Origin: an uncultured delta proteobacterium
GTDB taxonomy: Bacteria > Myxococcota_A > Polyangia > Polyangiales > Polyangiaceae
Direction: 5' to 3'
Assembly (NCBI GenBank): GCA_963696385.1
Contig: CAVOKF010000003.1
Span: 64,001-128,000 of the forward strand
Length of the DNA: 64,000 nucleotides
A model generated the notes under the pieces. It ran no database searches. It was not told the origin of the DNA and was given only the letters and a program-made list of their open reading frames with translations. Shown piece by piece: positions 551 to 16,930 of the stretch. The translations under genes and the position numbers were made by a program. The stretch's first letter is position 1. The number at the start of each line of letters is the position of its first letter.

Positions 551-570
551 CGGTCCTCCTTTCTCGCCGC

Positions 571-643
571 GCGGGACTAGCTCAGTTGGTAGAGCGTCGG
601 CTTCCCAAGCCGAAGGTCGCGGGTTCGAGACCCGTGTCCCGCT
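571..643 (+). tRNA. tRNA-Gly (anticodon CCC), CCA not encoded
   Basis: Full cloverleaf: acceptor GCGGGAC/GTCCCGC, D-arm GCTC/GAGC, anticodon arm TCGGC-TTCCCAA-GCCGA, T-arm GCGGG-TTCGAGA-CCCGT. Confidence 0.97.
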
Positions 644-1901
644 CTGAATGATTCCGTGAGGTTGCGAGTAACTCTGCAGGTACTTGACGAGCATCATCGG
701 TCACCGCTGGTGACAGAAGACGGGCCGCCAACCCCGGATCGATATCCGGCAACGCGGCGGCGGGTACCGGCCTCGCGGCGTCGAGCTCGCGCACGTACCC
801 CATGTGGACCTTCGGGTCGGCGTGGCTCGCGAGCGTCATTGCCGTCTGCATGTTGACCCCTGCCCCGGCCAGCGCCCGATTGTATGCGCGCCTCAGGCTG
901 TGGAAGTTCATCCGACGAGACACCGGGGTGTCCCAGTAAAGCGGATCCGCCGGGTTCGGCTTGCCCTTCAACGGAGGGAGCCGCACCACCCCGGCTCGGA
1001 AGAAGTCGCGGCGCAGACGGTTCGCGAACGAGGTGCCGCGGGACTTCTTGTCCTTCCCTGCCCTCGGCCCTCGACGCACCGGGAACACCGGTCCGGCCGT
1101 CGGACCCCCTGCCCTCGCCCACCATGCTCGAAGGAACGGCCGGAGCACTTCGGGCACTTCGAGGTGCTGTATCTCGCGAGTCTTGGACCGCGCGATCGTG
1201 CACCGGGCGAACTCAACCGTATCTATCATCGTCCAGTCCCAACGGATGAGCTCTGACGTCCGCATGCCGCCTTCGGTGCGGGCGACGAACGCGAGCAGCT
1301 TCAATTCGAGGTCGCAGTCCGGCGCGGCCAGGAACTTGCCGACCTCGGCATCCGTCGGACTTACGAACGGGCGCCGATCTCTCTTGAGGCCTTCGGGCAG
1401 TTCGACGTCTTCGGCGGGGTTTGCAGCGATGAGCTTTTCGATCTTGGCGCGCTTGAAGTCGCGGCGCATCACCGCGCGGATCTTGTGTACCGTCTCGTGT
1501 CCTAGCCCGTCGTCGCGTGCCTGCTCGAGAGCCCGACGAACATCGTCATCCGTGATGCGCGTAAGCTGTACGTCACCGATGACGCGGTAGATGTACCGAA
1601 CGCGATTGTTCTGTTCGTCCCGCGCCATCACCACGCCCGCCGCATTGCGCCGCTCGTGTCGGTCCGTCGTGTACGATCGGTATGTCTCCGCGACCTCGGT
1701 CTTGGCTTGCGCGTCGGCAACGTACTCCCCCGCTTCGATCATCGCGACGAGTCGGGCAAGCTTGCGCTTCGCCGTTTGCCGATCCTTCGTGTTCAGCGCC
1801 ATCCATCGGCGTTCGTCGGTGCCGTCTGGTCGTTTGACCCATACGCGGGCGTAGAAACCGCTCGGCTTCGCGATGATCGTGCCTGTTCTTTTGATAGCCA
1901 T
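582..1901 (-). CDS. int: Tyrosine recombinase/phage integrase
   Basis: N-terminal arm-binding-like region, GMRTSEL (R), FHSLRR (HxxR), ASHADPKVHMGY (H...Y); C-terminus reads through the att core. Confidence 0.95.
   Translation of the reverse strand: MAIKRTGTIIAKPSGFYARVWVKRPDGTDERRWMALNTKDRQTAKRKLARLVAMIEAGEYVADAQAKTEVAETYRSYTTDRHERRNAAGVVMARDEQNNRVRYIYRVIGDVQLTRITDDDVRRALEQARDDGLGHETVHKIRAVMRRDFKRAKIEKLIAANPAEDVELPEGLKRDRRPFVSPTDAEVGKFLAAPDCDLELKLLAFVARTEGGMRTSELIRWDWTMIDTVEFARCTIARSKTREIQHLEVPEVLRPFLRAWWARAGGPTAGPVFPVRRGPRAGKDKKSRGTSFANRLRRDFFRAGVVRLPPLKGKPNPADPLYWDTPVSRRMNFHSLRRAYNRALAGAGVNMQTAMTLASHADPKVHMGYVRELDAARPVPAAALPDIDPGLAARLLSPAVTDDARQVPAELLATSRNHSERDTGLEPATFGLGSRRSTN
601..644 (+). 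repeat. att core (attL), 44-bp direct repeat copy 1
   Basis: CTTCCCAAGCC...GTCCCGCTC is identical to 16856-16899; it is the 3' half of the tRNA from the anticodon loop. Confidence 0.95.
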
Positions 1902-1975
1902 CGTTCGCCTGCCTCTTCAGAACCGGGTGGCGCCCGGTTGACGCCCCTTGCGGGGCGTTTCGGCTATTCATGCGC

Positions 1976-2119
1976 TCACGGCTTGGTCTTGAGTCTGGCG
2001 ATCTCGTCTTCGAGCTTTGCGATCTGCTTTTTTAGCGTGTCGATTTCGCGATCCTTTGCAGAGAGCAGCGCGGCGTAATCATCGCGCTGGCGTTTTATCT
2101 GTTCCGGTGTCTCAGCCAT
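1976..2119 (-). CDS. Small coiled-coil hypothetical protein (47 aa)
   Basis: Own translation MAETPEQIKRQRDDYAALLSAKDREIDTLKKQIAKLEDEIARLKTKP, with GGAGG RBS. Confidence 0.6.
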   Translation of the reverse strand: MAETPEQIKRQRDDYAALLSAKDREIDTLKKQIAKLEDEIARLKTKP

Positions 2120-2187
2120 CTTGGCCTCCCTCGTCCCGCATCACGTGCGGACGTGATCCTGATCGGATCACGTTTCGGCCTGGGACG

Positions 2188-2526
2188 CTATCGTCGCCGA
2201 AACACCCCGCTTTCCCGTGGAATGACCTCGCCCGTCGAATCGACAACCGCGTCGGACTGGCACGAGTGTCGCGGGCACGGCGACGGTTTCGCCCACGGGA
2301 GAGCGAGAGATGCGGCGACGTCGTGAGTCAAAACGACCCCGAATGCCGCGACGGCGTGTCCGCAAAATCGGCAGTGGTATTCGCTTGGCGCGAACGCGTT
2401 GCGCTCGACAGCTTGCGCCTTGACGAGTCGGCGCACACGTTGGTCGACAAGATGGCGCCAGAGTTCCGGCGAGCCCTTGAAGGGGGGACGTGGAAAGTAT
2501 CGGCGAAGGATTCGGGCGGCGCTCAT
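2188..2526 (-). CDS. Hypothetical protein with CxxC motif
   Basis: ATGA-coupled to upstream ORF; HCRFCG and CPRHSC. Confidence 0.5.
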   Translation of the reverse strand: MSAARILRRYFPRPPFKGSPELWRHLVDQRVRRLVKAQAVERNAFAPSEYHCRFCGHAVAAFGVVLTHDVAASLALPWAKPSPCPRHSCQSDAVVDSTGEVIPRESGVFRRR

Positions 2527-2804
2527 CGGCGGCCCCGTAGCTCGTGCTCGGCGAGGATGTCCTCGTCACGCACTTCGATGGGCTCGCGGTCGAGCACGTC
2601 GACTCGAACCGCAGCGGTGAACGAGGTGAAGCTCTTCTTTTTCGCGTGATAGAAGCGGGCCAAGTGCAAGAGCGCGCAGAAGGCCTGATCGACCGTGCGC
2701 GCATCGGCCGGCGTCATGTCGTCGTCGGCATCGATCAGGGCATCGAGGGCCGCATGCAGGTTTTCGCGGATTCTGTTTTTTAGGGGAGTGGCTAAACTGG
2801 GCAC
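2523..2804 (-). CDS. Hypothetical protein
   Basis: Protein-like composition, RBS, coupled to next gene. Confidence 0.6.
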   Translation of the reverse strand: MPSLATPLKNRIRENLHAALDALIDADDDMTPADARTVDQAFCALLHLARFYHAKKKSFTSFTAAVRVDVLDREPIEVRDEDILAEHELRGRR

Positions 2805-2932
2805 GTTCGTTTCCCTTTCGGTTGCGGACCACGCTCCCGGCGGTTACAGCCGCGCGGGAGCATTCGTTGCGGGCTCGGTGCCCGCCCCGCGCCCGGCCCC
2901 CCAGCGGGAGCGGCACGAGGCGAGCGGCGAGG

Positions 2933-3139
2933 TCAACGCGTGAGGTCCTGGGCCAACTCCCTGATTCTCTCAACCTCTCCGAGAGCCATCACAATCGTGT
3001 CGGGGTCGGGGCTGCAGGCCAGCCGCTCGGACGCGAGCTCGGCCAGCCGGGCGATACGCGTCGCGACGACGAGCGTTCGCGAGGTTACCGGCTCGCGCCG
3101 GACAGTGGGGGCCTCGTCCGGCCAGGGGGCGGCGCTCAC
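2933..3139 (-). CDS. Small hypothetical protein
   Basis: GTGA overlap with RHH gene stop. Confidence 0.55.
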   Translation of the reverse strand: MSAAPWPDEAPTVRREPVTSRTLVVATRIARLAELASERLACSPDPDTIVMALGEVERIRELAQDLTR

Positions 3140-3360
3140 TTGCGGCCCTTCTTCGCGTCGGAAGCGAGCACGTCGAGCCCGCGGCGGATGGCCATGCGGA
3201 GCACGTCTGCCCGCGTGACCGACAGGCCAGGCTCGGACTTGGCTAGCGCAATTTGCTCGGCTTCCTCAAGCCACTCGGCGGAAAGGGCGATCGTTACTTG
3301 CCCGTCTTTGTTCGGATCCTTCGGTCTCGGCATCGTCGGCGAGTTCGCCATGTTGTTCAC
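3136..3360 (-). CDS. Ribbon-helix-helix (CopG/Arc-like) regulator
   Basis: QVTIALSAEWLEEAEQIA...TRADVLRMAIRRGL pattern (beta strand, helix, helix). Confidence 0.75.
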   Translation of the reverse strand: MNNMANSPTMPRPKDPNKDGQVTIALSAEWLEEAEQIALAKSEPGLSVTRADVLRMAIRRGLDVLASDAKKGRK

Positions 3361-3369
3361 CTCTCAGCC

Positions 3370-3408
3370 ACCGTAGCAAGTTGCTAACGCCGTGGCAAGG
3401 TGTATAAC
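3370..3408. promoter_or_regulatory. Overlapping divergent promoters with palindromic operator
   Basis: Minus: TTGCCA-N17-TACGGT (3398-3370); plus: TTGCTA-N16-TATAAC (3381-3408); palindrome TAGCAA-G-TTGCTA 3374-3386. Confidence 0.6.
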
Positions 3409-3431
3409 TCTTGGGAAAGGTGGTGGACCGT

Positions 3432-3992
3432 ATGAAAATGATAACGATGCTGGTTTCAGCGCTGGCGCTTGCTGCGTGCGGAGGGGCGCCGGAAGCGCCC
3501 GAAAGCATGGCCGCCCCGTCCTCTTCGTCCAGCAGCGCGTCGAGCGCCGAGGTCGCGGACGGCGCCGGGAGCCCGGACGACGCCGGGAGCCCGGCTGCGA
3601 GCTCGAGTTCGTCGTCGGCGATGTCGGCCCCGACCAGCAGCGACGATGACGCTGGCGAGACCGTCGAGGCCGCGGCCGTCGTGATCGACGCTGGCGCCCC
3701 GCCGTCGTATACCCCGGACGCGGCATGCCATGATCTGGCCTGCGAAGGGAACGTGGGGCCGCCATCCGATGCCTCGCCCTATGTGACGACGTGCCTAAAT
3801 CAGGCGGACGGGTGCGACGGGTGCGTGAATCTCTCGACGACAGGATGTACCAGTTCAGGCGGCACGATCGCGGGCACTGACGTTCCCGTATATTCCTGCC
3901 CGATCGGTACGGTGTGCTATCCGGGTACACTAAATCGTGGCGGCGCTGGTAACACGGTGTCGTGCACGTTCACTAACATCTGCCCAATGTGA
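3432..3992 (+). CDS. Cys-rich lipoprotein (moron-like cargo)
   Basis: Lipobox LAAC, Ser-rich linker, Cys-rich C-domain; opposite strand with own promoter and terminator. Confidence 0.8.
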   Translation: MKMITMLVSALALAACGGAPEAPESMAAPSSSSSSASSAEVADGAGSPDDAGSPAASSSSSSAMSAPTSSDDDAGETVEAAAVVIDAGAPPSYTPDAACHDLACEGNVGPPSDASPYVTTCLNQADGCDGCVNLSTTGCTSSGGTIAGTDVPVYSCPIGTVCYPGTLNRGGAGNTVSCTFTNICPM

Positions 3993-3999
3993 AATGGGC

Positions 4000-4033
4000 G
4001 AAACCCCGGGAAGCTTTCGCCGCTCGGGGTTTC
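4000..4033. terminator. Hairpin/intrinsic terminator
   Basis: GAAACCCCG...CGGGGTTTC stem just after the lipoprotein stop, between convergent genes. Confidence 0.65.
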
Positions 4034-4377
4034 TGGCTCGGCTGTCGCCCAGCTGGACCTTGGAGCTGTTTGGGGCCGCTTACGGTTCGCCCGGGCCGTT
4101 TATAACGTCCGCCCTTCGACGTGAATAGGTATACTGCCTATCGCCACTCCGTCAAGTGGGCGATATACGATTTTGCGCAGTGGCCTGTTTACGCGCTGCG
4201 CAGACTACGAAGTAGCTCTAGCAATTTGGCTTCCGCCGAAAGCGCCCGATCGCGCCATGTGCCAGCCGGACCCGCCCAGTAGCTCGCCACGCGCTCGGGG
4301 ACTGGGCAAGCCTCGGGCTGCGCACCTTGCGCCATCTCAAAACGAGTCAATCCGACGGGGCGATGCGCAGCCATTGG

Positions 4378-4899
4378 CTAATTCAGCTGATTCATGAAAA
4401 TGCACTGCCACGCTAGCTGATCGCTGCCGGTGGTCGCGACTAGGAGGGTGACGGTCTGGCCCGAGATACTGAAACCGGAGTACCCGTTCACCGTCTCCGT
4501 ATTGCTGTCGAACGCCTGCGAGTAGGCGTTCGTTACCGTGCCGCCGACGTCGACGAACCCCATCACCTGGCGGAACGAGCCCGCGCCGTCCGAGGGGTTC
4601 GTGATGTCACGGAAGGTGCACAACTGCTGCACGTGCCACAGGTGGCCCGACGTCAGAGTCACCGCCATCGTCGTCGAGGTGAATCCCGGCGGCACGACGC
4701 TCAATCCCTGCCACCCGGTGGTCCACGTCACGCCCATTTGCCCCGCGCTCTCCGAGCCGAGCCAATAGCCGGGGGAGAGCAGGAAACTGCCCGCCTGGGC
4801 AAACGATGGGCTGGCCGACGGCTGCGTCTGCGCGAGGGCGACGCCAGCGACGAGCGCGAGCGCGACGAGAATGAGTGACGGGGAAAACCTGTGTTGCAT
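4378..4899 (-). CDS. Secreted beta-rich hypothetical protein
   Basis: Signal peptide ending ALA-Q; beta-strand-rich mature part. Confidence 0.7.
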   Translation of the reverse strand: MQHRFSPSLILVALALVAGVALAQTQPSASPSFAQAGSFLLSPGYWLGSESAGQMGVTWTTGWQGLSVVPPGFTSTTMAVTLTSGHLWHVQQLCTFRDITNPSDGAGSFRQVMGFVDVGGTVTNAYSQAFDSNTETVNGYSGFSISGQTVTLLVATTGSDQLAWQCIFMNQLN

Positions 4900-4909
4900 T
4901 GAGTACTCC

Positions 4910-6124
4910 TCAGCTCAGTTGAGAAAGCTGGCCCGAGATCAGCGAGAAGCGCACGGTGCCGACGGTGTCGTTGAAGCAGATCGCGGCCTGGACGGGGGAC
5001 ATCGCGAGGTTCGGCGAGTTAGCGCCGTTAGGTGTAATGTACACTTGACTTGGATACCATGATTGGCCGTCGGGGCTCCAAACTATGACGCCGGTGTCAG
5101 GTGTGCTTGCCGCGACGAGACCAAGCCAAAGCGAGCCGCATCCGCAAAGGTATTTGATTGCGGCCTGGCCGCTCGAAGTGGAAAAGGCATATACATACGT
5201 GTTGCCCGTCTCGGACACGTAGTAATTCCGAACGTTGCCGCCTCCCGACGGCTGCGTAACCAGCAAAAATTGCCCTCCGGGGTTTGTCGTAGTCGTTCCC
5301 CAGGCGAGCGCGATCGGAATGTCCGTGCCGATCGTGCTGGAGATAGACAGCGTCGTGGTCGTTCCGCCAGTGGCCATGGTCACGCTGCATACGCCACTCG
5401 CGCCGATGTAAACCGCGGCGCATGTCGTCGCGTTCGCCGCGACTACGGCATTCGTGAGCGATAGACCGGTCACTTCAGCGGTATGGCTAGAGTTCGTCAG
5501 GTAGAAGATCTCAGACCCAGCCGCCGAGCCGGACACGAGCACGGCCATGGCGAAGGATTGGCCGCTCGGGCACGCGACCGGGAATGAAGTGGCGGCATTG
5601 AAGGCGCCCATGCCCGTTTGCACCGCGGCAGGCGTAATCGTCTCGACGTAGCCGAGCCCGCCACTGATACGAGTCATGTAGCTGCAGCCGGAGTTATCGC
5701 AGGCGATGCCAGCAACCGTGCCAGTGGGAGTGAACCCCGTCCCGAAATTCACGGTCGTTGTCGAATCCGTGCCCGTGAGCGTCGAAAAGAAATTGAACGC
5801 GCTCGAATTGTATGTGTTCGCGCAAACCCATAAATTGAGCGTGGCATTCCATGCCATGGCGTTCAACGTGTAGGCGCCGGATTCGGCCACGAACTGAGGT
5901 TGCCAATTCTGCGCGATCGTCGAGTCACCGCCGGCGATCTGGACCGCGGCGACATTGCTGAATGCCAAATTCAATTCGAAGTTGAGCGCGGGGGCGGCTG
6001 CGCCAGTGCCGGGCGTGAAATAGGATGCGGACGGCGCGATCTTCGTGGGGCCGCCCGACCATGGTGAGGATCCAGCGGGGTAGTCAAGGGCAGTCGACCA
6101 GGTACCAATAAGCGGCTGTCCCAT
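4910..6124 (-). CDS. Putative tail fibre/receptor-binding protein
   Basis: Gly/Thr/Ser/Ala-rich; N-terminal TKIAP...PG...ALNFELN anchor-like motif; Asp-box-like WSPDGQSW. Confidence 0.55.
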   Translation of the reverse strand: MGQPLIGTWSTALDYPAGSSPWSGGPTKIAPSASYFTPGTGAAAPALNFELNLAFSNVAAVQIAGGDSTIAQNWQPQFVAESGAYTLNAMAWNATLNLWVCANTYNSSAFNFFSTLTGTDSTTTVNFGTGFTPTGTVAGIACDNSGCSYMTRISGGLGYVETITPAAVQTGMGAFNAATSFPVACPSGQSFAMAVLVSGSAAGSEIFYLTNSSHTAEVTGLSLTNAVVAANATTCAAVYIGASGVCSVTMATGGTTTTLSISSTIGTDIPIALAWGTTTTNPGGQFLLVTQPSGGGNVRNYYVSETGNTYVYAFSTSSGQAAIKYLCGCGSLWLGLVAASTPDTGVIVWSPDGQSWYPSQVYITPNGANSPNLAMSPVQAAICFNDTVGTVRFSLISGQLSQLS

Positions 6125-6301
6125 TTACTTACTCCAAACGCTTTCGTTCCAATTCGACTGATTCCAGATCGCGGGTGGCGCCGGTGCCGGAGCGATATCC
6201 ACCGAGGCCGAGACCTCGCCGGTTAGCTCGAATTTAGCCGTGGCTTCCGCGGTCGGGACGGGCACGGTCGCGTCAATCGAACAGACAAATTCCTGGCTCA
6301 T
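6125..6301 (-). CDS. Small virion-type protein (58 aa)
   Basis: Own translation MSQEFVCSIDATVPVP...AIWNQSNWNESVWSK; overlaps the upstream stop and abuts the downstream start. Confidence 0.55.
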   Translation of the reverse strand: MSQEFVCSIDATVPVPTAEATAKFELTGEVSASVDIAPAPAPPAIWNQSNWNESVWSK

Positions 6302-6624
6302 TTGCTTTTCTCCACAGGTGTCCCGGCGAGCGTGTTGGCGCCGGTTCGGATTCTCATTCCGCCGAAAGTGATTTCGGCATTCTGTCCTAGGTCTGCAACC
6401 TCATTCCAAAATAGCCATGCGTAAATATTTCGCCTGTCGCCTGGTCGCAGCGCCTTGAGCGATCGGAGGACGTCGGCGGCGTCCTTGCGGAACGTGAGTG
6501 CGTCGCGCCGGGTCTCCGCGTTCGCTCGAAATTCCTCGTCGGTCGGAGTCGGCGCCGTCGGCTCCGGAACAACGGGTGTGCCGGTCAAAGCGTCGCTACG
6601 GTTGAATACGGCTCCCGATGTCAT
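6298..6624 (-). CDS. Hypothetical protein
   Basis: In the coupled minus-strand operon; GAGG RBS. Confidence 0.6.
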   Translation of the reverse strand: MTSGAVFNRSDALTGTPVVPEPTAPTPTDEEFRANAETRRDALTFRKDAADVLRSLKALRPGDRRNIYAWLFWNEVADLGQNAEITFGGMRIRTGANTLAGTPVEKSK

Positions 6625-6628
6625 TGGC

Positions 6629-7375
6629 TCATTCACCTCGCGTCCGACCCATTGCACGCACCTTCGGTTTGCCGACGGGCGTGCGCCAGGCGTCCTTTGC
6701 TCGCGCGATCATGGCGTCGCGCGCGTCGGTCGTCGCCGAGTCGCCCTCTCCGAACGTGTCAGGCGTGGACATACCCCCGCCGAAAGAGCCCGACGCCTCG
6801 CCCTGGTTCCCCCCGCCGAACGCGCTCCGTCCGTGCTCGGTCTGCGCTCGCTGGACGCGCGGAGCATTCTGCCGGGCTGATTCTCCGTACGGTCCGTCGT
6901 TGGGCGGGGTGCTCTCGTTTTTGCCCCTTGACCCCCCGGGAAACGAGCCGTCGTGCCCCCGTGCCGGACGATATCCGTACTGGGCAAGTTCGAGGCCCCG
7001 TTCGAATTTCGCTTGCAGAGCGGCGAAACCCGCTGCGCGCTGTTCGTCGGCCGAACTGAGCGTTTCCTCTTGTGTAGAGGTGTTCGTCTGGACGCCGCTC
7101 TCCGTCAGCATCGCGTCGGCGCGCGACTCGGCGCCGCCGGCGTAGATGAGATCCATCGGATCCAAGAATCGCGGCGCGGCGTCCGAGCGAAGCTGGCCCT
7201 TCTTGACGGCCACTCCGTAGACGCCCTCGATGTATGCAGCCGACGCGTTCGCTGGGATCTCGTAGCCGATCCGCGCGAGTTCTTTGCGACGAACGTCGGC
7301 GACGCCCCTCTCGTATTCGGGGTTGGGTGCCGGGTCTCTCGAGTTCGATTCATATCGCATTCCCATGGCGTTCAC
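6629..7375 (-). CDS. Hypothetical protein, possibly scaffold-like
   Basis: GTGA-coupled; low-complexity linker; SAAYIEGVY and DARDAMIARAKDAW segments. Confidence 0.6.
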   Translation of the reverse strand: MNAMGMRYESNSRDPAPNPEYERGVADVRRKELARIGYEIPANASAAYIEGVYGVAVKKGQLRSDAAPRFLDPMDLIYAGGAESRADAMLTESGVQTNTSTQEETLSSADEQRAAGFAALQAKFERGLELAQYGYRPARGHDGSFPGGSRGKNESTPPNDGPYGESARQNAPRVQRAQTEHGRSAFGGGNQGEASGSFGGGMSTPDTFGEGDSATTDARDAMIARAKDAWRTPVGKPKVRAMGRTRGE

Positions 7376-8793
7376 TTACCTTTCTTCGAAATTAGTGCCC
7401 CAAGTTCCACGATTCCCGCCGCTGCCGCCTCTGCGGCCCACGAGCTCAACTCGTCTTTCGACGTATTTCCGCTGTACGGCCGATCCACAGGCCTGGTCAC
7501 TCGGAGGTCGATCTTGTCGATCTGCTGCATATTCGGATCCTGCAAGATCCGGATCGGCGGATGCGTTGTCCCGATTGCGCCCGCCTGCACAGGAATCTGC
7601 CGATGTGCCGACATGCGCTCTTGATCCAAGAGCTCGGACCAGATGAGAGCGACTGCAGCCGGGGGCGAGATCAGATATCCACGGACGCAAACCTCGACGA
7701 TATGTCTCGGCATCCACCCGAGCGCCGTCCTTACTTGGTACAGGTATGTCGCCCACTCCCGGACGAACTCGCGCGCCGCATCCGTGTGTTGCTTGCTGAA
7801 CGCCTCGACGGGGCCAGTCTTCCGACCGGGTACATGTCGCTGGAGAATGCGGCACACAAGACCGTATGATTCGGTGTCGGGCAATCCGACGGACGCCAGC
7901 ATTTGCGCGTTGGCCGTGATGACGTGCTGAGGCGCCAAGATCTCGCCAACCGCGAAGACAACGCGCGGCAAAGGCAAACCCGGTATGGCCCGAAACACGA
8001 TCGTGCCGCCGATCATCGTCGCGGTAGCGAGCTCGCGCGGAATGGTCACGCCCGGTTCGTCGAGGATGCGGATGCCGACGAAATCGAGATCGCGAAGCGT
8101 GCGGCTTTCGATTCGGTTTGCCTCGGTGAAAGCGCGCTGGGCCGCCTGCGCCTCCGCTTCGATGCGCTCGTTTTCGGCCTTCTGCGAGGCCTCTAGCTCG
8201 CGAGCACGAGAGCCCGGAGCGACGAGCCGCTTGCCTGCCACGACCGGCCGCCCGATCACCTGAGCGCAGTGCGAGAAAGAGGCACCGAGGGATCGCATGG
8301 CCGACACCGCGAAGAGGTCGAACACGCGATCGGCGAACGTGTACTTGATCAAACCGCTGACCTCGGGCCGATGGCGGAGAATTTCGCGCGCCGCCGCGTC
8401 GGCTTCGTTGAGATGCTCCTCGAACACTTCGGTCCCGTCGTCGTCGATGCCGATCGATTCGATGGCGAGCCCGTACAGCTCCAGGCAGAGCAAAGCCGTG
8501 GGGCGAGCGGCGCCGTTGATCGGCTCAAGTCGCGCGATCTCGGTGTCACCCTGACGGATGACGATCGGAGCGTCGAGGGGGGCGCACCAAGGCACGAGCG
8601 AGCCGTTTTCGAGCAACGGGTTGACATCGCGCACCCGGACGTCGTCGACGATGACGAACCGAGCGCACGGCGGGGGCGCCGGCGGGCGATGGCGCTCCGC
8701 GGCTTCGCGAACGATTCGGAGGGCGTAATCGCCGCCGTGCTGGACAATCCCGTTTTGAACGCGATCGGGGACGTGGGGAATGCTGGTCGTCAT
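7372..8793 (-). CDS. Hypothetical protein (~473 aa)
   Basis: Long ORF, AAGAGG RBS, central coiled coil; family not recognised. Confidence 0.75.
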   Translation of the reverse strand: MTTSIPHVPDRVQNGIVQHGGDYALRIVREAAERHRPPAPPPCARFVIVDDVRVRDVNPLLENGSLVPWCAPLDAPIVIRQGDTEIARLEPINGAARPTALLCLELYGLAIESIGIDDDGTEVFEEHLNEADAAAREILRHRPEVSGLIKYTFADRVFDLFAVSAMRSLGASFSHCAQVIGRPVVAGKRLVAPGSRARELEASQKAENERIEAEAQAAQRAFTEANRIESRTLRDLDFVGIRILDEPGVTIPRELATATMIGGTIVFRAIPGLPLPRVVFAVGEILAPQHVITANAQMLASVGLPDTESYGLVCRILQRHVPGRKTGPVEAFSKQHTDAAREFVREWATYLYQVRTALGWMPRHIVEVCVRGYLISPPAAVALIWSELLDQERMSAHRQIPVQAGAIGTTHPPIRILQDPNMQQIDKIDLRVTRPVDRPYSGNTSKDELSSWAAEAAAAGIVELGALISKKGK

Positions 8794-8821
8794 TTTCGTT
8801 GGCCTCTTGTAGTGTGTATCG

Positions 8822-9160
8822 TCAGGAATTTTTTGCACGGAATTGCGGCACCATTGCCCGAAATGAATCCGAACTGTTCGCGCTGAACTCGATGCCGCCG
8901 ACCTTGCCATACCTGGCCGTCATCGGATTGCGACTCACTGTCGCGATCTCGACGCGCCCGGCGGGGTCGCGCGTGACCGAAAGGCACGGTTCTTCGCTGT
9001 CGTCCATCCCTTGCCGCAGGTCGCGTACGAAGTCCCGCGTCTGCCGCATCGTAGCCTGCAACGCGTCGCCGATGACTTCGTCAATCAACTGATCGTATCG
9101 GTCCTCGCAGAGTGCCCGGCGCTGCGGTATGTACGGATTTCGCCCTCCCTTTAGCCTCAT
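8822..9160 (-). CDS. Hypothetical protein
   Basis: ATGA overlap with terL stop. Confidence 0.6.
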   Translation of the reverse strand: MRLKGGRNPYIPQRRALCEDRYDQLIDEVIGDALQATMRQTRDFVRDLRQGMDDSEEPCLSVTRDPAGRVEIATVSRNPMTARYGKVGGIEFSANSSDSFRAMVPQFRAKNS

Positions 9161-10809
9161 CGCGCCACCCCCCAAGTGTTCCCGTAGGTCGTCTCAAAGA
9201 ACCAGCGAGCCCGATGCGGGAATCCCTGATCCTTGCACGCTGGATCAATCACGATGTTTCCGATCATGTCGCCCACCTTCCATCGCGCAATGCCGTTGAC
9301 ATAGTCGGCGTCCACGTACGTGATCGTGCCGCCGCTCTCCGTGAGTGTGTACGTGTCTTTCTTGAGGCCGACTTTTCGGCGCCAGCCAATGAGCTCCGCG
9401 AGCACATTCGTGTAGTGTTCGGTGGCCTGCTGATAAACGCCCTGATCGAATACGCGTCCGCCACGAGCATCCACCGCGGACATCGCTCGGACCCAACTTG
9501 CTTCGCCGTTCGAAGCCCGCGAGGCGCAGAGCGCGATGCTCTGTGCGTGGTCGGAGTGTCGCCCCCCCTGGCGTTCGAGCTCGATACTGAATCCGCCCTG
9601 CTTCGATACCAACTTGCGAACTCCGAGTAGATCGGAGCGGAGGATCGGCACGTCCGGAATCTCGATCGTGCCGTCCGTGAACCGGCGCTTGAGGGAATCG
9701 AACATCTGCACTTTCCCCGGTTGCGTCATCGCTTCCTGCACGAGCTCGATGCCGTGCCGATCCGCATGGGACTTCAGAGCATCGAAGGACCACTGATCCT
9801 GTACGAGTTCGTCGATGCCGTACGACTTGAGGATTACCGCGATTTCGCCCATCGTGGCGTCGCTGTCCAAGGCACCACCCTTCGGTGCGCGCCAGCCCTG
9901 CACACGCACGATCTGGACACTGCCGGACTCGAGTTCGCGACCGATCGCTAGACTCCACTCGTTGCTGCGCGTCGCCGGATCTTGTGCGGCAAAATATCGA
10001 CCACCTGGGACGTGCGGAATCGAGGCTTGGCCTCTGTGCGTCGCGGCCAGCAAGAGCGATTCCGAGAACATCGAAAGCATGTCCCCGGCGAACGGGATTG
10101 CGCCGTATTCACGCAGAAACGTGTCCTCGTCGGGCTCAAGCTCGCGGCATTCTTGCTCGGTGAGACTCGGGCGCGCGATCCATGTCGCGGCTTGCGTGAC
10201 AACTTGGAAATCGGTGTCGCCCGCGTCGATTGCCTTGGCGTGCGCATCGTTGCGGCCCATCGGACTCGACGAAAGGAAGATCTTCGCATTCGGTTGGCCG
10301 GCCATCGTTGGGCGAAGGCTCGCGAGCACCTCCGTCGCCGGGTTTGAGCCGGTGTCGACGTCCTTCCATTTGGCAACCTCGTCGCAAATCGCGCATATGC
10401 AGGTGAAGCCCGAGACGCCGGAGATCGAGGCGGCGAACGTTTTGAAGGCGACGGGGCGCGACTCGAGCTCGATGCCGCCGTCGCACGGCTTGTACTTCAC
10501 GCCGAGCGCCGCAAGGATCGCCTTCACCGTGCGGAGGCGTTCGGCGGACTGGTCGCGCGATACCGATATGATCGCGACAACGCCGATGTCACCCGCGGGA
10601 ATCTTGTGATCTCCGTACAAGCCTTCGAGGACGCCAACCCGGCAAAGACTCGACGACTTGCCGCCACGGCGACCTACGCGCCCCGCCCATTGCCGTTTCC
10701 CCGATGCGTAGAACGATGCGAGGGTATTCTTCCACCAATCGCTCATCGGGTGGAAGTCCGCGCTCGCGAGGCGCCGTTCGAGGGGGGTGAGATGGTCGAG
10801 GACGCTCAT
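9157..10809 (-). CDS. terL: Terminase large subunit
   Basis: Walker A VGRRGGKS, Walker B ICDEVA, coupling motif SSSP, nuclease AQDPA...QDQW...HSDHA. Confidence 0.88.
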   Translation of the reverse strand: MSVLDHLTPLERRLASADFHPMSDWWKNTLASFYASGKRQWAGRVGRRGGKSSSLCRVGVLEGLYGDHKIPAGDIGVVAIISVSRDQSAERLRTVKAILAALGVKYKPCDGGIELESRPVAFKTFAASISGVSGFTCICAICDEVAKWKDVDTGSNPATEVLASLRPTMAGQPNAKIFLSSSPMGRNDAHAKAIDAGDTDFQVVTQAATWIARPSLTEQECRELEPDEDTFLREYGAIPFAGDMLSMFSESLLLAATHRGQASIPHVPGGRYFAAQDPATRSNEWSLAIGRELESGSVQIVRVQGWRAPKGGALDSDATMGEIAVILKSYGIDELVQDQWSFDALKSHADRHGIELVQEAMTQPGKVQMFDSLKRRFTDGTIEIPDVPILRSDLLGVRKLVSKQGGFSIELERQGGRHSDHAQSIALCASRASNGEASWVRAMSAVDARGGRVFDQGVYQQATEHYTNVLAELIGWRRKVGLKKDTYTLTESGGTITYVDADYVNGIARWKVGDMIGNIVIDPACKDQGFPHRARWFFETTYGNTWGVAR

Positions 10810-11378
10810 GTTTCGACCTTGTCGCCGGGCAAGCGCCATGCAGCGAGCGGATCCACCGGACCCTTCGGGCGCGCTTGCGCCTCGCGCGCGCAAAGCTCGT
10901 GCGCGGCCAGTAAGTGCTGGCGCGATGTCTCGCCCAGTCGGGCGCTCCGCATGGCGAGCTCGGGGTCACCCGTCGAAGCAGCGAGGTCGGAGAAGTACCG
11001 CGACCAGGCCAGCGCGAGCGCAGCCGACGCAACGACCGACGATGGGCCGGGGCCGCACACACCCCCGCCCACGGTGCGGGCGAGCTCGGCACACTGCGTT
11101 CGTCGGAAACTCGACGCTGCCGCCTTGTACTGACGGAATGCAGCGTCGTCGGGCAGGGTCGTCAAGCCGAGACGCGACGAAAGACGGCTCTTGCCGGCCA
11201 GCGCTTTTCCGCCAGCGCGCGCCAACGAGTTGCCGCGGGCAAACCTCCCCGCCTTGCCGCGGTCCGTCGGGCTAGCCTGACGGGCTTCCGCGGGCACACC
11301 GTCCGGCAGCTCATCGGGCGGCAAAACCTCGATCCGGGGCGTGCCTGCGCCCGCGCCGTGGCCACTCCTTATTGCCAT
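10806..11378 (-). CDS. Putative terminase small subunit
   Basis: ATGA-coupled directly upstream of terL; RGKAGRFARGN motif like the GxFxxGN N-termini of TerS. Confidence 0.6.
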   Translation of the reverse strand: MAIRSGHGAGAGTPRIEVLPPDELPDGVPAEARQASPTDRGKAGRFARGNSLARAGGKALAGKSRLSSRLGLTTLPDDAAFRQYKAAASSFRRTQCAELARTVGGGVCGPGPSSVVASAALALAWSRYFSDLAASTGDPELAMRSARLGETSRQHLLAAHELCAREAQARPKGPVDPLAAWRLPGDKVET

Positions 11379-11402
11379 GGAGTCCCCACGGATGTGCTAG
11401 GA

Positions 11403-11612
11403 ATGGCCGCGATGGGGGCGCCTAAAGGCTTGGCAGAGATGTCGGGCGACTTTCTGCGGGAGGCTGGTGTGCTCGTCGCGGCCTTGGGCGTGCTAGAAAA
11501 GACAATCGCGGCCGGCTTACCGTCGTGGAAGTGGACCGTGGCCGTTCTTGGTTTGGGGTTGTTTTTTGCCGGTTTCGGCGCCATCATTGAGCGAACCAGG
11601 AGCAGGAGCTGA
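11403..11612 (+). CDS. Small two-TM membrane protein
   Basis: MAAMGAPKGLAEMSGDFLREAGVLVAALGVL...VAVLGLGLFFAGFGAIIER. Confidence 0.55.
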   Translation: MAAMGAPKGLAEMSGDFLREAGVLVAALGVLEKTIAAGLPSWKWTVAVLGLGLFFAGFGAIIERTRSRS

Positions 11613-11614
11613 AC

Positions 11615-11794
11615 ATGGGCGAGTACACCTACATCGTTGGCCTTGCCATCATGGGTCTGGTCGTGTTCACGGTCGGGATGATTGCTGCCATGATCGAGCG
11701 CGGTCATGGGTCCACCTCGAGCGCGGCCACCGACGCGAACGCGTCGCGAACGTCGACAAGCCACGCCAATCCGATCCTGTCCGCGTCGAAATAA
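11615..11794 (+). CDS. Small single-TM protein (59 aa)
   Basis: Own translation MGEYTYIVGLAIMGLVVFTVGMIAAMIERG...; AGGAG RBS. Confidence 0.5.
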   Translation: MGEYTYIVGLAIMGLVVFTVGMIAAMIERGHGSTSSAATDANASRTSTSHANPILSASK

Positions 11795-11985
11795 GTCCCC
11801 TCGTAAAAGCCATCGGGTCGCAGGGTCGCTTTCCAGCGCGCCCCGATGCCGAGCCGGTTGCCGGCCGCGAAGTGCCCACCGGGGGTACGCCCTTGCCGCG
11901 GGTTCGCGTCGGTTTCGCTGGACGTAGAATCGCTCGCGCGCACCAGCGTCGGCCGCGTCTTGCCGTGAGAGCGTTCGATGGTCAT
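11704..11985 (-). CDS. TerS-like paralog/fragment
   Basis: MTIERSHG...RTPGGHFAAGNRLG resembles the N-terminus of 10806-11378; ATGA-coupled. Confidence 0.45.
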   Translation of the reverse strand: MTIERSHGKTRPTLVRASDSTSSETDANPRQGRTPGGHFAAGNRLGIGARWKATLRPDGFYEGTYFDADRIGLAWLVDVRDAFASVAALEVDP

Positions 11986-12365
11986 GTGGCGCCCTCGGCG
12001 GCAAACAGGGCGCGCAAGTCGGTCGGCCACTGCGGCGTACAGTCCTCAGGCCGGAACGGCGCCGCGTAATCGGGCAACCTCAGGATCCGCGGGGTGACCT
12101 CGGCGACTAGCGCCTGCCACTGAGGGCCGTGATCCGCCCATGGATCTACCGCGTGGCTCAGCTCGTGGACGAGAACGTCGCAGAATCGAATGCGGTCGAA
12201 GCGCAGCGTGCGCGGGGCGAGCCAAAGCGTGTCGCCGTCGCAGCACCCCTCGAGGGTTGGATCCACGTCATCGGGCAGACCGATCACAACCTGCGGAACG
12301 CGGTCGAGCTCAGGAAAGAAGCGAGCGGCGAGGCGCTCGACGAGGGACTGGAGATTAGTGATCAT
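11982..12365 (-). CDS. SprT-like zinc metallopeptidase
   Basis: DVLVHELSHAV...DHGPQW (HExxH plus HGxxW). Confidence 0.75.
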   Translation of the reverse strand: MITNLQSLVERLAARFFPELDRVPQVVIGLPDDVDPTLEGCCDGDTLWLAPRTLRFDRIRFCDVLVHELSHAVDPWADHGPQWQALVAEVTPRILRLPDYAAPFRPEDCTPQWPTDLRALFAAEGAT

Positions 12366-12978
12366 GGCCACCCCCGCGCGGTGCTTGGCCCTGGTGACGC
12401 TCGGCGGGGCGCCATTGCAGGCCGTGGTCCTGCTCGAGTCGCTCGGATTCCTCGAGAACGAGCCTCACGATCGCCTCGCGCCGCGCAGCCTCGGGCAGTA
12501 CGTGGAACGCGGCCCGCAGTCGCGGCCAGTACTCTCCACCGGCCCAGCGAGGGCCTCGGCTGTCGACGCCGGGAAACGTCGCCATCACGGCCTGGGCGGC
12601 GGCAAGGATCGCGGTCTCAACTTGATCGCCGCGAACCAGCGGGCGTGAATCGAAGCTCTCAGGATCGCGCTGCTTGCGCGGCTTCGGCGGCGCGGCTTCG
12701 CGGACCGCATCCCGCTCGGCCTGGCGCCGCGCCGCAATAGCAGCCACGAGCTCGGGGTCGGCACGGACGGCGTCGCTCAAGGTGCATCGTGCGACCCCTA
12801 GCGCGCTGGCCGCGGCCTCCAGCGAAGGTGACTCAAGCACAACCGCTTTGCGCTCGGGCGTAAGAAGGAAGGTCCGAGGGTCGACGCGCAAGGCAGAGCC
12901 AGCGGCCTTCGCTGCGGCGAGCCGTGCGGCGAGGGCAGGATCGGCAGCGGCGGCGCGGGCCACGGCCGCACGGCTCAC
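12355..12978 (-). CDS. Ala-rich hypothetical protein with possible HTH
   Basis: SLEAAASALGVARCTLSDAV HTH-like segment. Confidence 0.55.
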   Translation of the reverse strand: MSRAAVARAAAADPALAARLAAAKAAGSALRVDPRTFLLTPERKAVVLESPSLEAAASALGVARCTLSDAVRADPELVAAIAARRQAERDAVREAAPPKPRKQRDPESFDSRPLVRGDQVETAILAAAQAVMATFPGVDSRGPRWAGGEYWPRLRAAFHVLPEAARREAIVRLVLEESERLEQDHGLQWRPAERHQGQAPRGGGHDH

Positions 12979-13059
12979 GCCGGACGCGTCGATGGCGCGC
13001 GTCGGCGGAACACCGCTCGCGATAGCCGATAAGAATCGCCTCGATGGTGTCGGCCGCGA

Positions 13060-13239
13060 TCATCGGACCCCCTCCGGCTCGAGTGCAGCGACAATCGCTG
13101 CTCTCCAGGCCTCTCGGATGTGCGCGGTCAACTGATCCCATCGCGGCATCGGACGGCCGTCGTAGGTGAGACCACCCGTAAACGCGGCGTAGCCCCGATA
13201 GGCGCGCTCGGCGGCGCTGGCGAACTGGTCGGGGGTCAC
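13060..13239 (-). CDS. Small phage-type hypothetical protein (59 aa)
   Basis: Own translation MTPDQFASAAERAYRGYAAFTGGLTYDGRPMPRWDQLTAHIREAWRAAIVAA...; GGAGG RBS. Confidence 0.65.
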   Translation of the reverse strand: MTPDQFASAAERAYRGYAAFTGGLTYDGRPMPRWDQLTAHIREAWRAAIVAALEPEGVR

Positions 13240-13694
13240 TGGTCATCCTCCAATCGAAAGCCCCGTGGCGGGGCGGTTGCGGTCGCTGCAAGTCCGACGG
13301 CGGAGTGATTCATGGGCACGGAAGGGCCGGACCGGGACGTCCCCGGCCACCACGCCTCCGCCGTCGGACGAGCGTCGGCGGCACCATGCCGTCGCTCGCG
13401 CCCGCCAGGGGCTCCCGCTGAGTGAGATACAAGGCAGGCTCGAGTCTGTTGGCCAGCGCCAGAATCCTCAATGATTACGCTGGCAGAGACACTAAACGAG
13501 CGCAGTGACTCGTCGCTGGTGACTACTCGTCTCATGATCGCCAGCGATTCACGGCCTTCGCGCGCGTTGAGCGTCGGCTGCATGTGCCGACGATTACGAG
13601 AAACATCGAAGGATCCGCGGCAGATCGCAGGGTCCACGACGTTTCCGGGTTGCCCAATAGGCAGGCCTGGGCAGGGCTCCAAGTGATTTCCCAA

Positions 13695-13793
13695 TTCCCG
13701 ATGCTCCTTAAGGAGCGCATCGGGTAATCGGGTAATCCTTCACCCGATGGCATCGGGAAAGAATCGGGTAAACATCGGGTAATCGGGTAATCG
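13695..13793. repeat. Iteron-like cluster (putative replication origin)
   Basis: ATCGGGTA at 13719, 13727, 13763, 13774, 13782, a variant at 13752, inverted copies, and palindrome GCTCCTTAAGGAGC; directly after the helicase. Confidence 0.7.
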
Positions 13794-13794
13794 C

Positions 13795-15048
13795 TCACGG
13801 TGCCTCCGGCGGGGCCGCGTGGCTGAGGTAGAGGCGTCGTCCGTTGCCACGGCCGGGCACCTTTCGTTGAACGACCTCGCCGTTGTCGCAGAGCGTGTTG
13901 ACGGAAGCGCGCACGAGCAGGGCGTCGAGTCCGACGATGGCGCGAACGGCGTCCGTGCCGGCGATGCCGGGGTGCGAGCGAATGCACTCGCGAACCGCTT
14001 CGACCGCTTTGGCCAAGCGGGCATCGCCAGTCGGCTTCGCGGCGGTCAGCTCTGCGCGGTCGATGTGGCAGACGACGAGACCCCATTTCGGGTCGCCGTC
14101 GGCCTGTACGTCATCGATACGCAAGCCAAAGTCTGCGACGGCTTGACCGAGCGCCCGGTCCTTTTCGTGCGTCACGAGGGAGAGCGCTTCGCCTTTCTTC
14201 TTTGATTGGACGAACATGCTCTGAAACTCGTCGAGGATGCCGGACGAGCCGCGGGCCATTTCCTTGCGCGTCCGCTGCGAGCCTTCGTTCGGCGTCTTGC
14301 CCGCGTGGTGAATAAGCTCGACGGCGGCGCCGCTCGAATCGGAAGCGCTCGAAAGGGCGCCGATGTACCCGCGCACCTGCGACGAGTTCTCGTCGAGTCC
14401 ACCGAGCATCGGGCGGAGGGAATCGCAGGTAACGAGGCGCACGCCGGCGAACGCTCTACGGAATTGGTCGGCCGCCTGGTCGGACGTAAGCCGAAGGTCC
14501 GGCAGAATGGCGACGCGGATGAATCCATCAGATATGAGTTCGCGGAGATCATCGTCGATGATGCCGAGTCCGCGGGCGAGGCGATGAATCGTTTTCTTCG
14601 TCTGGCGCCGACCCATCTCATAATCAAGATGAAGCCATGGCCCTCGATGAACGTTCCATGTCCCCCATAGGGGCTTGCCCGTGGCGACGGCGAGGCCCAT
14701 CGAGCAAATCGATATGGTCTTGCCGGACCAGGCTTGACCAATCCAACCGTTGACGGGGCCGGCCCCGATTCCGAGCGCCGGAATGGTCAGGCTCTCGACG
14801 TTCTCCGCCGCGAAGAATTCGTCAGCGTTCAGACAACGCACGGGGATTGACGGCTGCGATACGCGTTCCAACTGCTCGCGCGTCGCGTGCGGATAGTGGC
14901 CATTCGCCTCGTCGACGATCGCCCGACGTTCCGCGGCTTGTTCCGCCTCGTCATCGGCAAAGAAGCCGTCGACATCTTCGGGCGGCAACGGCATCACGAT
15001 GCGCTCCTCAGCGAGGCCAGCGGTGTAGTGGGAGCGCTCATGCGTCAC
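13795..15048 (-). CDS. AAA_25 / RepA-type SF4 replicative helicase
   Basis: Walker A GQAWSGKT, HLDYEMG, Walker B VTCDSL, LIHHAGK, RGSSGI; start uncertain. Confidence 0.85.
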   Translation of the reverse strand: MTHERSHYTAGLAEERIVMPLPPEDVDGFFADDEAEQAAERRAIVDEANGHYPHATREQLERVSQPSIPVRCLNADEFFAAENVESLTIPALGIGAGPVNGWIGQAWSGKTISICSMGLAVATGKPLWGTWNVHRGPWLHLDYEMGRRQTKKTIHRLARGLGIIDDDLRELISDGFIRVAILPDLRLTSDQAADQFRRAFAGVRLVTCDSLRPMLGGLDENSSQVRGYIGALSSASDSSGAAVELIHHAGKTPNEGSQRTRKEMARGSSGILDEFQSMFVQSKKKGEALSLVTHEKDRALGQAVADFGLRIDDVQADGDPKWGLVVCHIDRAELTAAKPTGDARLAKAVEAVRECIRSHPGIAGTDAVRAIVGLDALLVRASVNTLCDNGEVVQRKVPGRGNGRRLYLSHAAPPEAP

Positions 15049-15382
15049 CTCCGCGACCCAACGTGGGGCAATCGACCCACGCGACTTGCGCCCAACCATC
15101 GATTAGGATGAGCACTGGATAGTTGCGACCGTCGTCTCGCGGGTCGCTGTCGATCTCCGTGAGAATCTCGTCCAGCCCGTCCAGGTGTAGCCCTGCCGAA
15201 TGCAGACAAGGCTGGATGATATGTCGATATGTGAGTTTCGGTGGCCGACCCTCGACCGCGAGAACAATACAAGTTTTCGCGGTGCAATCGTGCGGCGCTC
15301 GCATGATCGAGCCACTGGCCGTCCTCATTAGGCGATCCGCGCGGCGCTCAAGTTGTCGCTTGACGTGCCTAGACGGCGTCAT
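15038..15382 (-). CDS. Hypothetical protein
   Basis: ATGA-coupled in the early operon. Confidence 0.55.
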   Translation of the reverse strand: MTPSRHVKRQLERRADRLMRTASGSIMRAPHDCTAKTCIVLAVEGRPPKLTYRHIIQPCLHSAGLHLDGLDEILTEIDSDPRDDGRNYPVLILIDGWAQVAWVDCPTLGRGGDA

Positions 15383-15648
15383 CGGCGCACCGACCTGTAG
15401 ATTTTGGTTCCGTCCGGACACTCGCAAACGAACTCTGTATCGTCGCTCGGGTCATCGGGTAATTCGCCAATGATCGCCAAGTCGTTGTCGTCGAACGGCG
15501 GACCCTTCGCGAGCAGGGCATCGCGGCAGAGCACAAGAGCGCGAGCCATTCGAAGTTCCTCGATGGGGCGCAATACGTGCGCCGGCATCGGCCGCCCCTC
15601 GATTGCGGCGCGCTCGGCGGCGTCGAATTGCTCGACGTGCGCCGTCAT
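15379..15648 (-). CDS. Hypothetical protein
   Basis: ATGA-coupled on both sides. Confidence 0.6.
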   Translation of the reverse strand: MTAHVEQFDAAERAAIEGRPMPAHVLRPIEELRMARALVLCRDALLAKGPPFDDNDLAIIGELPDDPSDDTEFVCECPDGTKIYRSVRR

Positions 15649-15935
15649 TTGCTACCTCGCGCCGCCAAGAACTCGGGCAGTTCACTCGCCTTGATCTCGA
15701 CGTGCTTCGACTTCGGGGGTACCAGCATTTGCTGGACTGGCGCATGACCAGCGGCCCACTCGGCTTCGCGAGAGAGCAAGGCGAGCTCGCATAGCTTCAG
15801 CTCGGCAGTGGCCCTTTCGAACAGGCTTCGCGCCCGCGCCAGGTGGACACCGGCAGCGGGTTCGGTCGCCGTCGTGCTCGCGCCAAGATGCGCGCGGACC
15901 GCGGCGAACAAGTCGATGTCGACAGGCGCGGTCAT
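15645..15935 (-). CDS. Hypothetical protein
   Basis: ATGA-coupled on both sides. Confidence 0.6.
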   Translation of the reverse strand: MTAPVDIDLFAAVRAHLGASTTATEPAAGVHLARARSLFERATAELKLCELALLSREAEWAAGHAPVQQMLVPPKSKHVEIKASELPEFLAARGSK

Positions 15936-16303: not shown

Positions 16304-16506
16304 GGCGCCACCTGACGGACGAAGGTCCGCGACCGGATCAGCGCCAGTGTCCCGCGGCGAATCGGTAACCCGCCGACTGCTTTGCCGATCGCCTCTCGAC
16401 CAACGCCACACCACCGCGCAACCTCGCTGACCGACGACGCGAGGATCACGCGTCGGAGCTCATCTCGCTCATGCTCGGAGAGCGCATCGGTCGCCGGGTG
16501 ACGCAT
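16300..16506 (-). CDS. Small Cro-like HTH protein
   Basis: SVSEVARWCGVGREAIGKAVGG; first gene of the operon, GTGA-coupled. Confidence 0.6.
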   Translation of the reverse strand: MRHPATDALSEHERDELRRVILASSVSEVARWCGVGREAIGKAVGGLPIRRGTLALIRSRTFVRQVAP

Positions 16507-16899: not shown

Positions 16900-16930
16900 C
16901 CTAGAAATCATTGAGGATTTGCCCTCCGGC

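Follow-up and report, generated by a model that had tools for sequence, protein, structure and literature searches.

When an integrase gene runs through its own attachment site, integration gives the enzyme a new C-terminus, which raises the question of whether this exchange acts as a switch or is a by-product of the layout. Here we examined such a locus in a 64-kb window (the whole stretch of DNA analysed, 64,000 nucleotides), in which an element of about 16.2 kb is integrated in a tRNA-Gly gene and its integrase gene, int, reads antisense into that tRNA. The original prediction had taken the arrangement for a built-in integration/excision switch like that of the myxophage Mx8. We find that the exchange itself is well defined, and we consider it, with a probability of roughly one half, to be a near-neutral by-product or vestige of having the attachment site of the excised form (attP) within int, and not a tuned switch. 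The host of the element is a Polyangiaceae-type soil myxobacterium.

Exchange of the integrase C-terminus at the tRNA-Gly gene

The only tRNA gene in the 64-kb window, as recognised by ARAGORN, is tRNA-Gly(CCC) at 571..644 on the plus strand. From its 3' part, a 39-nt stretch occurs in two copies, 605-643 and 16860-16898, with 0 mismatches (0.00 expected from 100 shuffles). The full exact direct repeat comprises 44 bp, 601-644 being identical to 16856-16899 at an offset of 16,255 nt, and spans the tRNA from the anticodon loop to its 3' end. Islands that integrate in tRNA genes are typically recognised by an exact repeat of the tRNA 3' end such as this one. As in Mx8-type insertion, the element lies in the 3' part of the tRNA and its DNA restores the gene, so that a whole tRNA stands at the left attachment site (attL) and a fragment at the right one (attR). 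The exchange involves the following features, in which ORF denotes an open reading frame.

571..644, plus strand: tRNA-Gly(CCC), intact (ARAGORN and repeat extent); its last 44 nt, at the 3' end, form the core at attL
601..644: attL core, the 44-bp repeat, translated in the int frame as ERDTGLEPATFGLG
16856..16899: attR core, the displaced 3' tRNA fragment (repeat comparison)
645..16855: integrated element between the two cores (about 16.2 kb), carrying int, a TerL-like ORF, an AAA_25 ORF and other ORFs without assignment
582..1901, minus strand: int, coding for a tyrosine integrase (Int) of 439 amino acids (ORF; Pfam PF00589 and PF22022) and running antisense into the tRNA
582..602, minus strand: last six codons, SRRSTN, and stop, host-derived and lying antisense to the D-arm and anticodon stem of the tRNA
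16771..16857, minus strand: 28 codons and stop with which the Int of the excised (attP) form would end (in-place translation)

Int is a tyrosine recombinase by both domain and active site. It matches Phage_integrase PF00589 (E 7.9e-8; 32.7 bits, cut-off 27.1), Phage_int_M PF22022 and PHROG 1 'integrase' (E 3e-27), and its catalytic set R214 K240 H334 R337 H360 Y369 is invariant in an alignment of 20 homologous sequences (alignment A1). The genome to which the window belongs holds a single copy of the integrase.

In the integrated form the protein ends ...ERDTGLEPATFGLG-SRRSTN, i.e. ...FGLGSRRSTN. At attR, read in place on the minus strand and in the int frame, ...ERDTGLEPATFGLG is followed by RPFVSLQGAATSSKATSAWPTCGARICE up to a stop at 16771-16773. 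The predicted excised-form Int would accordingly be of 433+28 = 461 amino acids against 439 for the integrated form, with a swapped ending of 28 against 6 residues; the longer figure is an arithmetic sum that takes its ending from the translation of attR in place, not the length of a joined gene. The original prediction had arrived at the same 28-residue tail, with the same position and the same total. Its anatomical core, an att core within int whose use in integration exchanges the Int C-terminus, is confirmed by the ORF, the tRNA and the 44-bp repeat.

The swap point falls after G433, at the 5' edge of the anticodon loop, where the first differing bases are 600 and 16855. Since the first difference lies at this edge, a crossover anywhere in the 44-bp identity yields the same two proteins; the crossover itself would take place in the anticodon loop, at the start of the identity block. 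With the att core inside the int ORF, integrated and excised forms differ in the 3' end of int, as in the Mx8 type. The swap point is 64 residues past Y369, leaving the catalytic domain whole and changing only the residues after G433. The predicted tails end in ...ICE (excised) and ...STN (integrated), neither of which resembles an ssrA-like degradation tag.

Attachment-arm DNA in the coding tail

The last invariant column of alignment A1 is P385. Beyond it come a short helix, predicted at 389-396, and the peptide LLSPAVT, and from there on the homologous sequences diverge. In an AlphaFold2 model of Int, computed from a 20-sequence alignment, the mean predicted local distance difference test score (pLDDT) is 78, while every one of the 44 residues 396-439 scores below 50 and is without secondary structure. 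The G+C content of third codon positions (GC3, in 20-codon windows) falls from 0.80-0.95 around the catalytic region to 0.3-0.6 at residues 391-420, where the lowest windows have 0.40 and 0.30. The corresponding stretch and the sites in the two arms of the attachment site, P and P', are:

642..731, minus strand: Int residues 391-420, a stretch of low GC3 with pLDDT below 50 from residue 396 (GC3 and AlphaFold2)
700..714: P-arm palindrome GTCACCgctGGTGAC, 56 nt from the core, encoding the conserved LSPAVT
16732..16745: counterpart of the palindrome in the P' arm, GTCACCagccGGTG, in which one half-site is degenerate; distance to the core 111-124 nt
16828..16842: conserved P'-arm box TGCGGCACCTTGCAA, of the form TGCG(C/G)CA(C/T)CTTGC(A/G)A, at a fixed 14 nt from the core (TTCCCAAG)

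The palindrome GTCACC-N3-GGTGAC has its sole match in the 64 kb at 700-714 (0.03 expected), and a relaxed form of the pattern matches at 700-714 and 16732-16745 only (0.26 expected), with more GTCAC repeats to the right of the latter. Two related elements, L025 and L026, carry the palindrome in both arms and at the same distances as in the window. Its translation varies with the spacer, 3 nt in the P arm giving LSPAVT and 4 nt in the P' arms giving SPAGD or SPTGD. The half-sites are thus kept while the encoded peptide changes, which places the conservation at the DNA level. On this sequence comparison, the LSPAVT peptide is best explained as a translated palindromic DNA site. The peptides SPAGDSS and VTARDDS in the tails of more distant homologs, read from the proteins alone, would be translated palindromes as well, and the three cases advise caution with protein motifs that are read without their DNA.

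The P-arm palindrome is probably a protein-binding site of the arm type, and the palindromes of both arms are predicted to bind intasome proteins, or Int itself as arm-type sites. In the Int model the N-terminus forms a three-stranded sheet (8-12, 15-23, 29-35) and a helix (41-56), and this predicted fold (residues 8-56) is compatible with an arm-binding domain. The P'-arm box keeps its 14-nt spacing in four elements, namely the window, L025, L026 and the metagenome contig L034, and its differences between window and L025, as read from the alignment, fall at second codon positions. In the P arm between core and palindrome, the window is strongly unlike the consensus of L025 and L026.

The attP of the element overlaps the 3' end of its own int, as in Mx8, and recombination within the 44-bp identity leaves the prophage Int with six tRNA-antisense codons and the excised form with 28 element codons, so that the endings of the two differ. 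For the coding tail we suggest the following. The last 40-odd codons of int would be mainly translated attP arm DNA, made up of a palindrome, a fixed-length spacer and the core from the tRNA. In such an arrangement the end of int would overlie the P arm, and the exchanged residues would terminate a disordered tail of low conservation. Given this location, the swap is most likely near-neutral or vestigial here.

Other short repeats were seen in the arms. On the P' side, some 185 nt away from the core, two tandem copies of an 11-mer, GGGTACATCAT, occupy 16652-16673. The motif GTTGCG(A/G) occurs in direct orientation in both arms of the window (659-666 and 16826-16834), about 17-29 nt from the core, and L025 has GCGCCATC in both arms in its place; the two may be element-specific core-proximal sites.

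Relatives and the case for a switch

Of 8000 candidates scored in a homolog search of a 5.8-billion-protein set, 176 matched at E <= 0.001, and 120 of these matches were listed. Most C-termini among these 120 are translated tRNA genes, read antisense and, in one sub-clade, sense; at least seven share the exact end FGLGSRRSTN. The few source names among the listed homologs are metagenome-assembled genomes (MAGs) of Polyangiaceae and Minicystis, and related MAG contigs are Myxococcales or Polyangiaceae by title. Within the order, 13 of 301 genomes hold a homolog (E <= 1e-60).

We examined 21 loci for an overlap of int and tRNA. A whole tRNA stands right after the catalytic region in 10 of them, the window included, and 7 have no ARAGORN tRNA nearby, three of these having a long tail after a core-like peptide and two stopping early; in 3 the ORF ran off the contig and 1 had no high-scoring segment pair over the catalytic region. 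The int ORF ends within the tRNA, which is of the Gly, Arg or Met type, in 10/10 whole-tRNA loci. Between catalytic region and tRNA, these 10 loci sum to 0 stops in the int frame and to 12 and 6 in the other two. Judged from these loci, a stop inside the tRNA characterises the Polyangia-type integrase family as a whole. P0007 and P0010, homologs of 69-71% identity, traverse tRNA-Gly in another frame (...SNSRPSAWEADALPTELVP...), which is also open in the window. Since they use this other frame, the core-encoded peptide itself is not conserved.

Excised-form tails can be compared among three elements for which both ends are available:

Window (G000:C3): repeat 44 bp, element 16.2 kb, excised-form tail 28 amino acids
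L025 (G232:C4): repeat 49 bp, element 13.4 kb, excised-form tail 66 amino acids
L026 (G301:C10): repeat 43 bp, element 15.3 kb, excised-form tail 64 amino acids

By position, the tail of the window has 3/28 identities with L025 and 4/28 with L026, and the tails of L025 and L026 agree at 9 of their first 28 positions; the window has no sizeable conserved C-terminal segment of the excised form. What the relatives do have is a motif of nine codons, RAFRA(L/V)SW(M/L), beyond the P' palindrome on the int strand in L025, L026 and L034. In L025 and L026 it stands in the Int frame that passes through the core, and both ORFs end 7 codons later. The GLEP frame of L034 ends after 36 codons, and the motif stands in the P0007/P0010-type frame, which is open for about 140 codons. 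All six frames of the window lack it, two in-frame stops standing where it would fall. Conservation of the tail in homologs, on which the original prediction had made its switch depend, is thus not borne out: only 2/28 positions are common to both comparators, whose tails are of 64 and 66 residues, and the motif of the relatives is absent.

When the core-plus-tail peptide of L026 was compared with longer proteins, only L026 itself and a weak relative, P0125 (E 5e-4), were found. P0125 (223 amino acids, from a JGI contig of 1396 nt) has three tandem repeats of about 37 residues, each with a partial core peptide (...EERDTGLALSC...), ahead of the full core peptide and tail; the repeats may reflect repeated partial att cores in the DNA.

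In other clades, the long-form proteins P0058, P0076, P0087, P0112, P0091 (= L011) and L009 continue for about 100-130 residues beyond the core and end, after the att core peptide, in a common helical and basic C-terminal motif of about 50-60 residues (...AGRFDVVAQLARELEARRLAR...VV.L...R.KR). Precomputed Pfam assignments for the first five of these proteins comprise PF00589 and PF22022 only. L009 is the 596-aa Int of G017:C17 (12627-14414 of L027, which is G017:C17:30000-49900), a 57-kb contig without tRNA. Its neighbours are homologs of VirB4, VirB6, VirB8, VirB9 and VirB10 (type IV secretion) and a topoisomerase. P0051, a protein of 481 amino acids from elsewhere, matches this Int over the 83 C-terminal residues compared ahead of the core peptide, after which it ends in six residues derived from a tRNA; the part that would be swapped in this Int comprises about 120 residues and ends in the helical motif.

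Several points weigh against a near-neutral swap. Short disordered tails can determine protein stability. The comparators number only three to five, and in both full ones int is interrupted in the assembly, by a stop or frameshift at the catalytic region in L025 and by a frameshift near residue 140 in L026; assembly errors or decay may account for this. The int frame, open to the tRNA in 10/10 loci, hints at selection for read-through, a weak hint with about 60 nt per locus unconstrained and the loci related. In the RAFRALSW motif, 7/9 residues are invariant and the 10 variable sites fall on 3 first, 0 second and 7 third codon positions, so that the excised-form tail of the relatives is under purifying selection at the protein level. 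The helical basic motif is found only in long (attP-form) proteins of other clades, and the G017 Int and P0051 look, from their sequences, like a natural excised/integrated pair. Finally, the new 3' end alters Int behaviour in Mx8, according to PMC6070905.

The alternative that fares best is a working switch of directionality or stability, in which the 461-aa and 439-aa forms would differ in the way of IntP and IntX of Mx8; we regard it as possible but doubtful for this element. The frame is open through the core in 10/10 loci, a selected tail motif exists in relatives and a conserved long-form C-terminal domain in other clades, and the architecture is like that of Mx8 (PMC6070905), whose Int continues beyond a TGLEP core peptide into a tail. 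However, the tail of the window is short, agrees with both comparators at 2/28 positions, lacks their motif and stops before the P' palindrome. Residues 396-439 are predicted to be disordered, and a hidden Markov model (HMM) of the long-form motif, built from 6 tails, has no match in window 1-20000 (best E 0.95), nor in a six-frame search of L025, L026 or Mx8 (best E 0.65-1). Kinship to Mx8 Int is remote (23% over 217 amino acids, E 0.005), so that function is not transferred by homology. Of the original reading, the anatomy and the analogy with Mx8 (PMC6070905, PMC4383910) hold, but a built-in switch is unsupported for this element.

For the family as a whole, it is conceivable, if tentative, that an excised-form-only C-terminal extension is a selected module (of RAFRALSW type in the tRNA-Gly clade, a helical basic domain of about 50 residues elsewhere, also in the element with type IV secretion genes), which would be cut off reversibly on integration and which the member in the window would have lost through the two in-frame stops. 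The protein-level constraint on the relatives' excised-form tails keeps the switch idea alive at this level. If true, such a module would be a general gene-fusion directionality switch, common to phage-like elements and integrative and conjugative elements (ICEs).

Searches for excised forms and empty sites bear on whether the alternative tail arises at all. No relative turned up in IMG/VR, whether the Int protein or alignment A1 served as the query. In metagenomes, the junction of P' box and core was found in one contig, L034, which is an attR with a host oxidoreductase-like gene beyond and not an attP, and the same pattern is present in only 2/401 genomes of the order, G000 and G232. Logan contigs of four runs, compared with window 1-18500, gave no 16855-601 circle joint and no tRNA-16900 empty-site joint, though absence is beyond what contigs can demonstrate. 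The depth in run X6 is about 30-100 over the flanks and near 0-1 over the element interior, and no contig bridges the site, which is not evidence of an empty site. An empty-site search of the genus with the right flank 17300-19300, which is partly repeated in its own genome, had its best match in G288 at 83%, with no tRNA nearby. The 401-genome pattern scan and the right-flank search included the unpublished genome G316, on which no claim rests. The repeat family beside the att site, 17300-17720, recurs in the genome of the window at G000:C3:39597-39879 (93% over 283 nt), with a second copy of 83% at C1:360249-360483.

That the element is a decaying, immobile island, whose excised form never arises and whose alternative tail exists on paper only, appears improbable. 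The palindrome of the P' arm has a degenerate half-site, the tail motif of the relatives is lost, with two in-frame stops, and the P arm from core to palindrome is far from the L025/L026 consensus; yet int is uninterrupted and retains its six catalytic residues, the two 44-bp repeats show no difference, and in the P arm the palindrome has no mismatch. Chance, i.e. an ORF beside a tRNA in 64% G+C DNA that merely runs to the next stop, is very unlikely: although the other two frames of the window have just 1 stop each over the 156 nt from catalytic region to tRNA and the core is open in each of its three antisense frames, the overlap recurs in 10/10 related loci with different tRNAs (Gly, Arg, Met), the att arms hold conserved sites inside the coding tail, and two unrelated neighbouring integrases also traverse the same core.

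The element, its neighbourhood and known systems

Besides int, the following genes in and beside the element were recognised:

9157..10893, minus strand: large-terminase-like (TerL) ORF (PHROG 2, E 5e-11)
13795..15099: AAA_25 primase/helicase-like ORF (E 8e-20)
16900..17280, minus strand: C-terminal remnant of a second tyrosine integrase (...LMGHAGSGVTQQHYT...), in the stop-to-stop ORF 16771..17280

Pfam and PHROGs recognise no capsid, portal or tail protein in the 16-kb element. From its gene content we read it as phage-derived or satellite-like; with its TerL-like ORF it could be satellite-like or a very divergent small prophage. Repeats of CATCGGGTAATCGGGTAATC (family D2) at 13718-13798 and 15445-15470 flank the AAA_25 primase/helicase-like gene, and with this iteron-like layout they may mark the replication origin of the element.

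The remnant integrase traverses the attR core in the int frame and currently bears the 28-residue tail. Its Pfam match is weak (20 bits, under the cut-off), and it has only 14 core residues in common with Int, being otherwise unrelated. In L026, yet another integrase type, P0124 (259 amino acids), occupies the same place beside the core. The remnant of a second integrase, running through the same core, points to serial or tandem use of the tRNA-Gly site. Within the tail-coding part of the remnant (...GLTADFTAGLTAG...), at 16941-16983, are three GCAGTAAGACC-like repeats (family D3) with 12-nt spacing, which may be arm sites of the older element itself, again translated within an integrase tail.

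For Mx8, an attP that lies within int and entails a C-terminal swap is established knowledge, and island-finding software already allows for such a layout. The new observations are modest, namely the family-wide extent, the palindrome behind a 'conserved' peptide and the long-form-only modules, as set against a literature search that covered Mx8 attP, attP within integrase genes and integration-dependent immunity. Apparently, members of this large integrase family of uncultured myxobacteria have attP within int as a rule, which implies that gene callers report chimeric C-termini made of tRNA antisense and that island finders must allow for an overlap of int and tRNA. If the swap matters, the insertion state of the element is recorded in the very enzyme that moves it, a principle known from Mx8. 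A wider test of the Mx8 model could draw on the relatives and the ICE-like contig, which provide long and short forms of Int as natural pairs.

Integration-dependent immunity in the mycobacteriophage BPs acts through the repressor gene, whose product loses an ssrA-like C-terminal degradation tag. The window is unlike this type, its attP lying in int and not in a repressor gene. For BPs and relatives, PMC4557955 describes an attP in a phage gene, integration changing C-terminus and stability of the protein. In the archaeal 'suicidal' integrases of the SSV type, integration splits the gene in two and probably inactivates it, whereas in the window the catalytic domain stays intact. The window may be comparable to heterobivalent integrases of the lambda type, its Int model having an N-terminal sheet and helix and its two arms a repeated site, 56 and about 111 nt from the core; its candidate arm sites, known here from sequence and model, are palindromes, one of them inside the int coding sequence.

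Closest in layout are the myxophages. Mx8 targets tRNA-Asp, and on integration 112 residues of its Int are reportedly replaced by 13; work by Julien from 2003 is said to place the attP of Mx9 within int and one bacterial attachment site (attB) in a tRNA-Gly gene. The Mx8 attP lies within int, which receives a new 3' end on integration (PMC6070905, PMC4383910), and Mx9 follows a similar integration principle with int alone required (PMC6070905). Like Mx8, the window has attP inside the int coding sequence, a tRNA target and a new int 3' end on integration. Mx8 Int (AF396866, 533 amino acids) contains a core peptide derived from the tRNA T-arm, STGLEP, in ...ARSTGLEPVLLGS... at about 414-426, followed by about 108 residues. 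The two differ in this tail, about 108 residues against 28 after the core, in the target, tRNA-Asp against tRNA-Gly(CCC), and in that an altered activity of the prophage form is experimental in Mx8. The remote BLASTP similarity between the two integrases falls short of kinship within a subfamily, and in a phage collection 12 records match the window Int, all below 30% identity, with no Myxococcus phage and no Mx8 match at 1e-5. As its sequence indicates, the window is of the Mx8 type in layout and outside the Mx8 Int subfamily, and it adds a distant new example of the Mx8 principle rather than a new idea.

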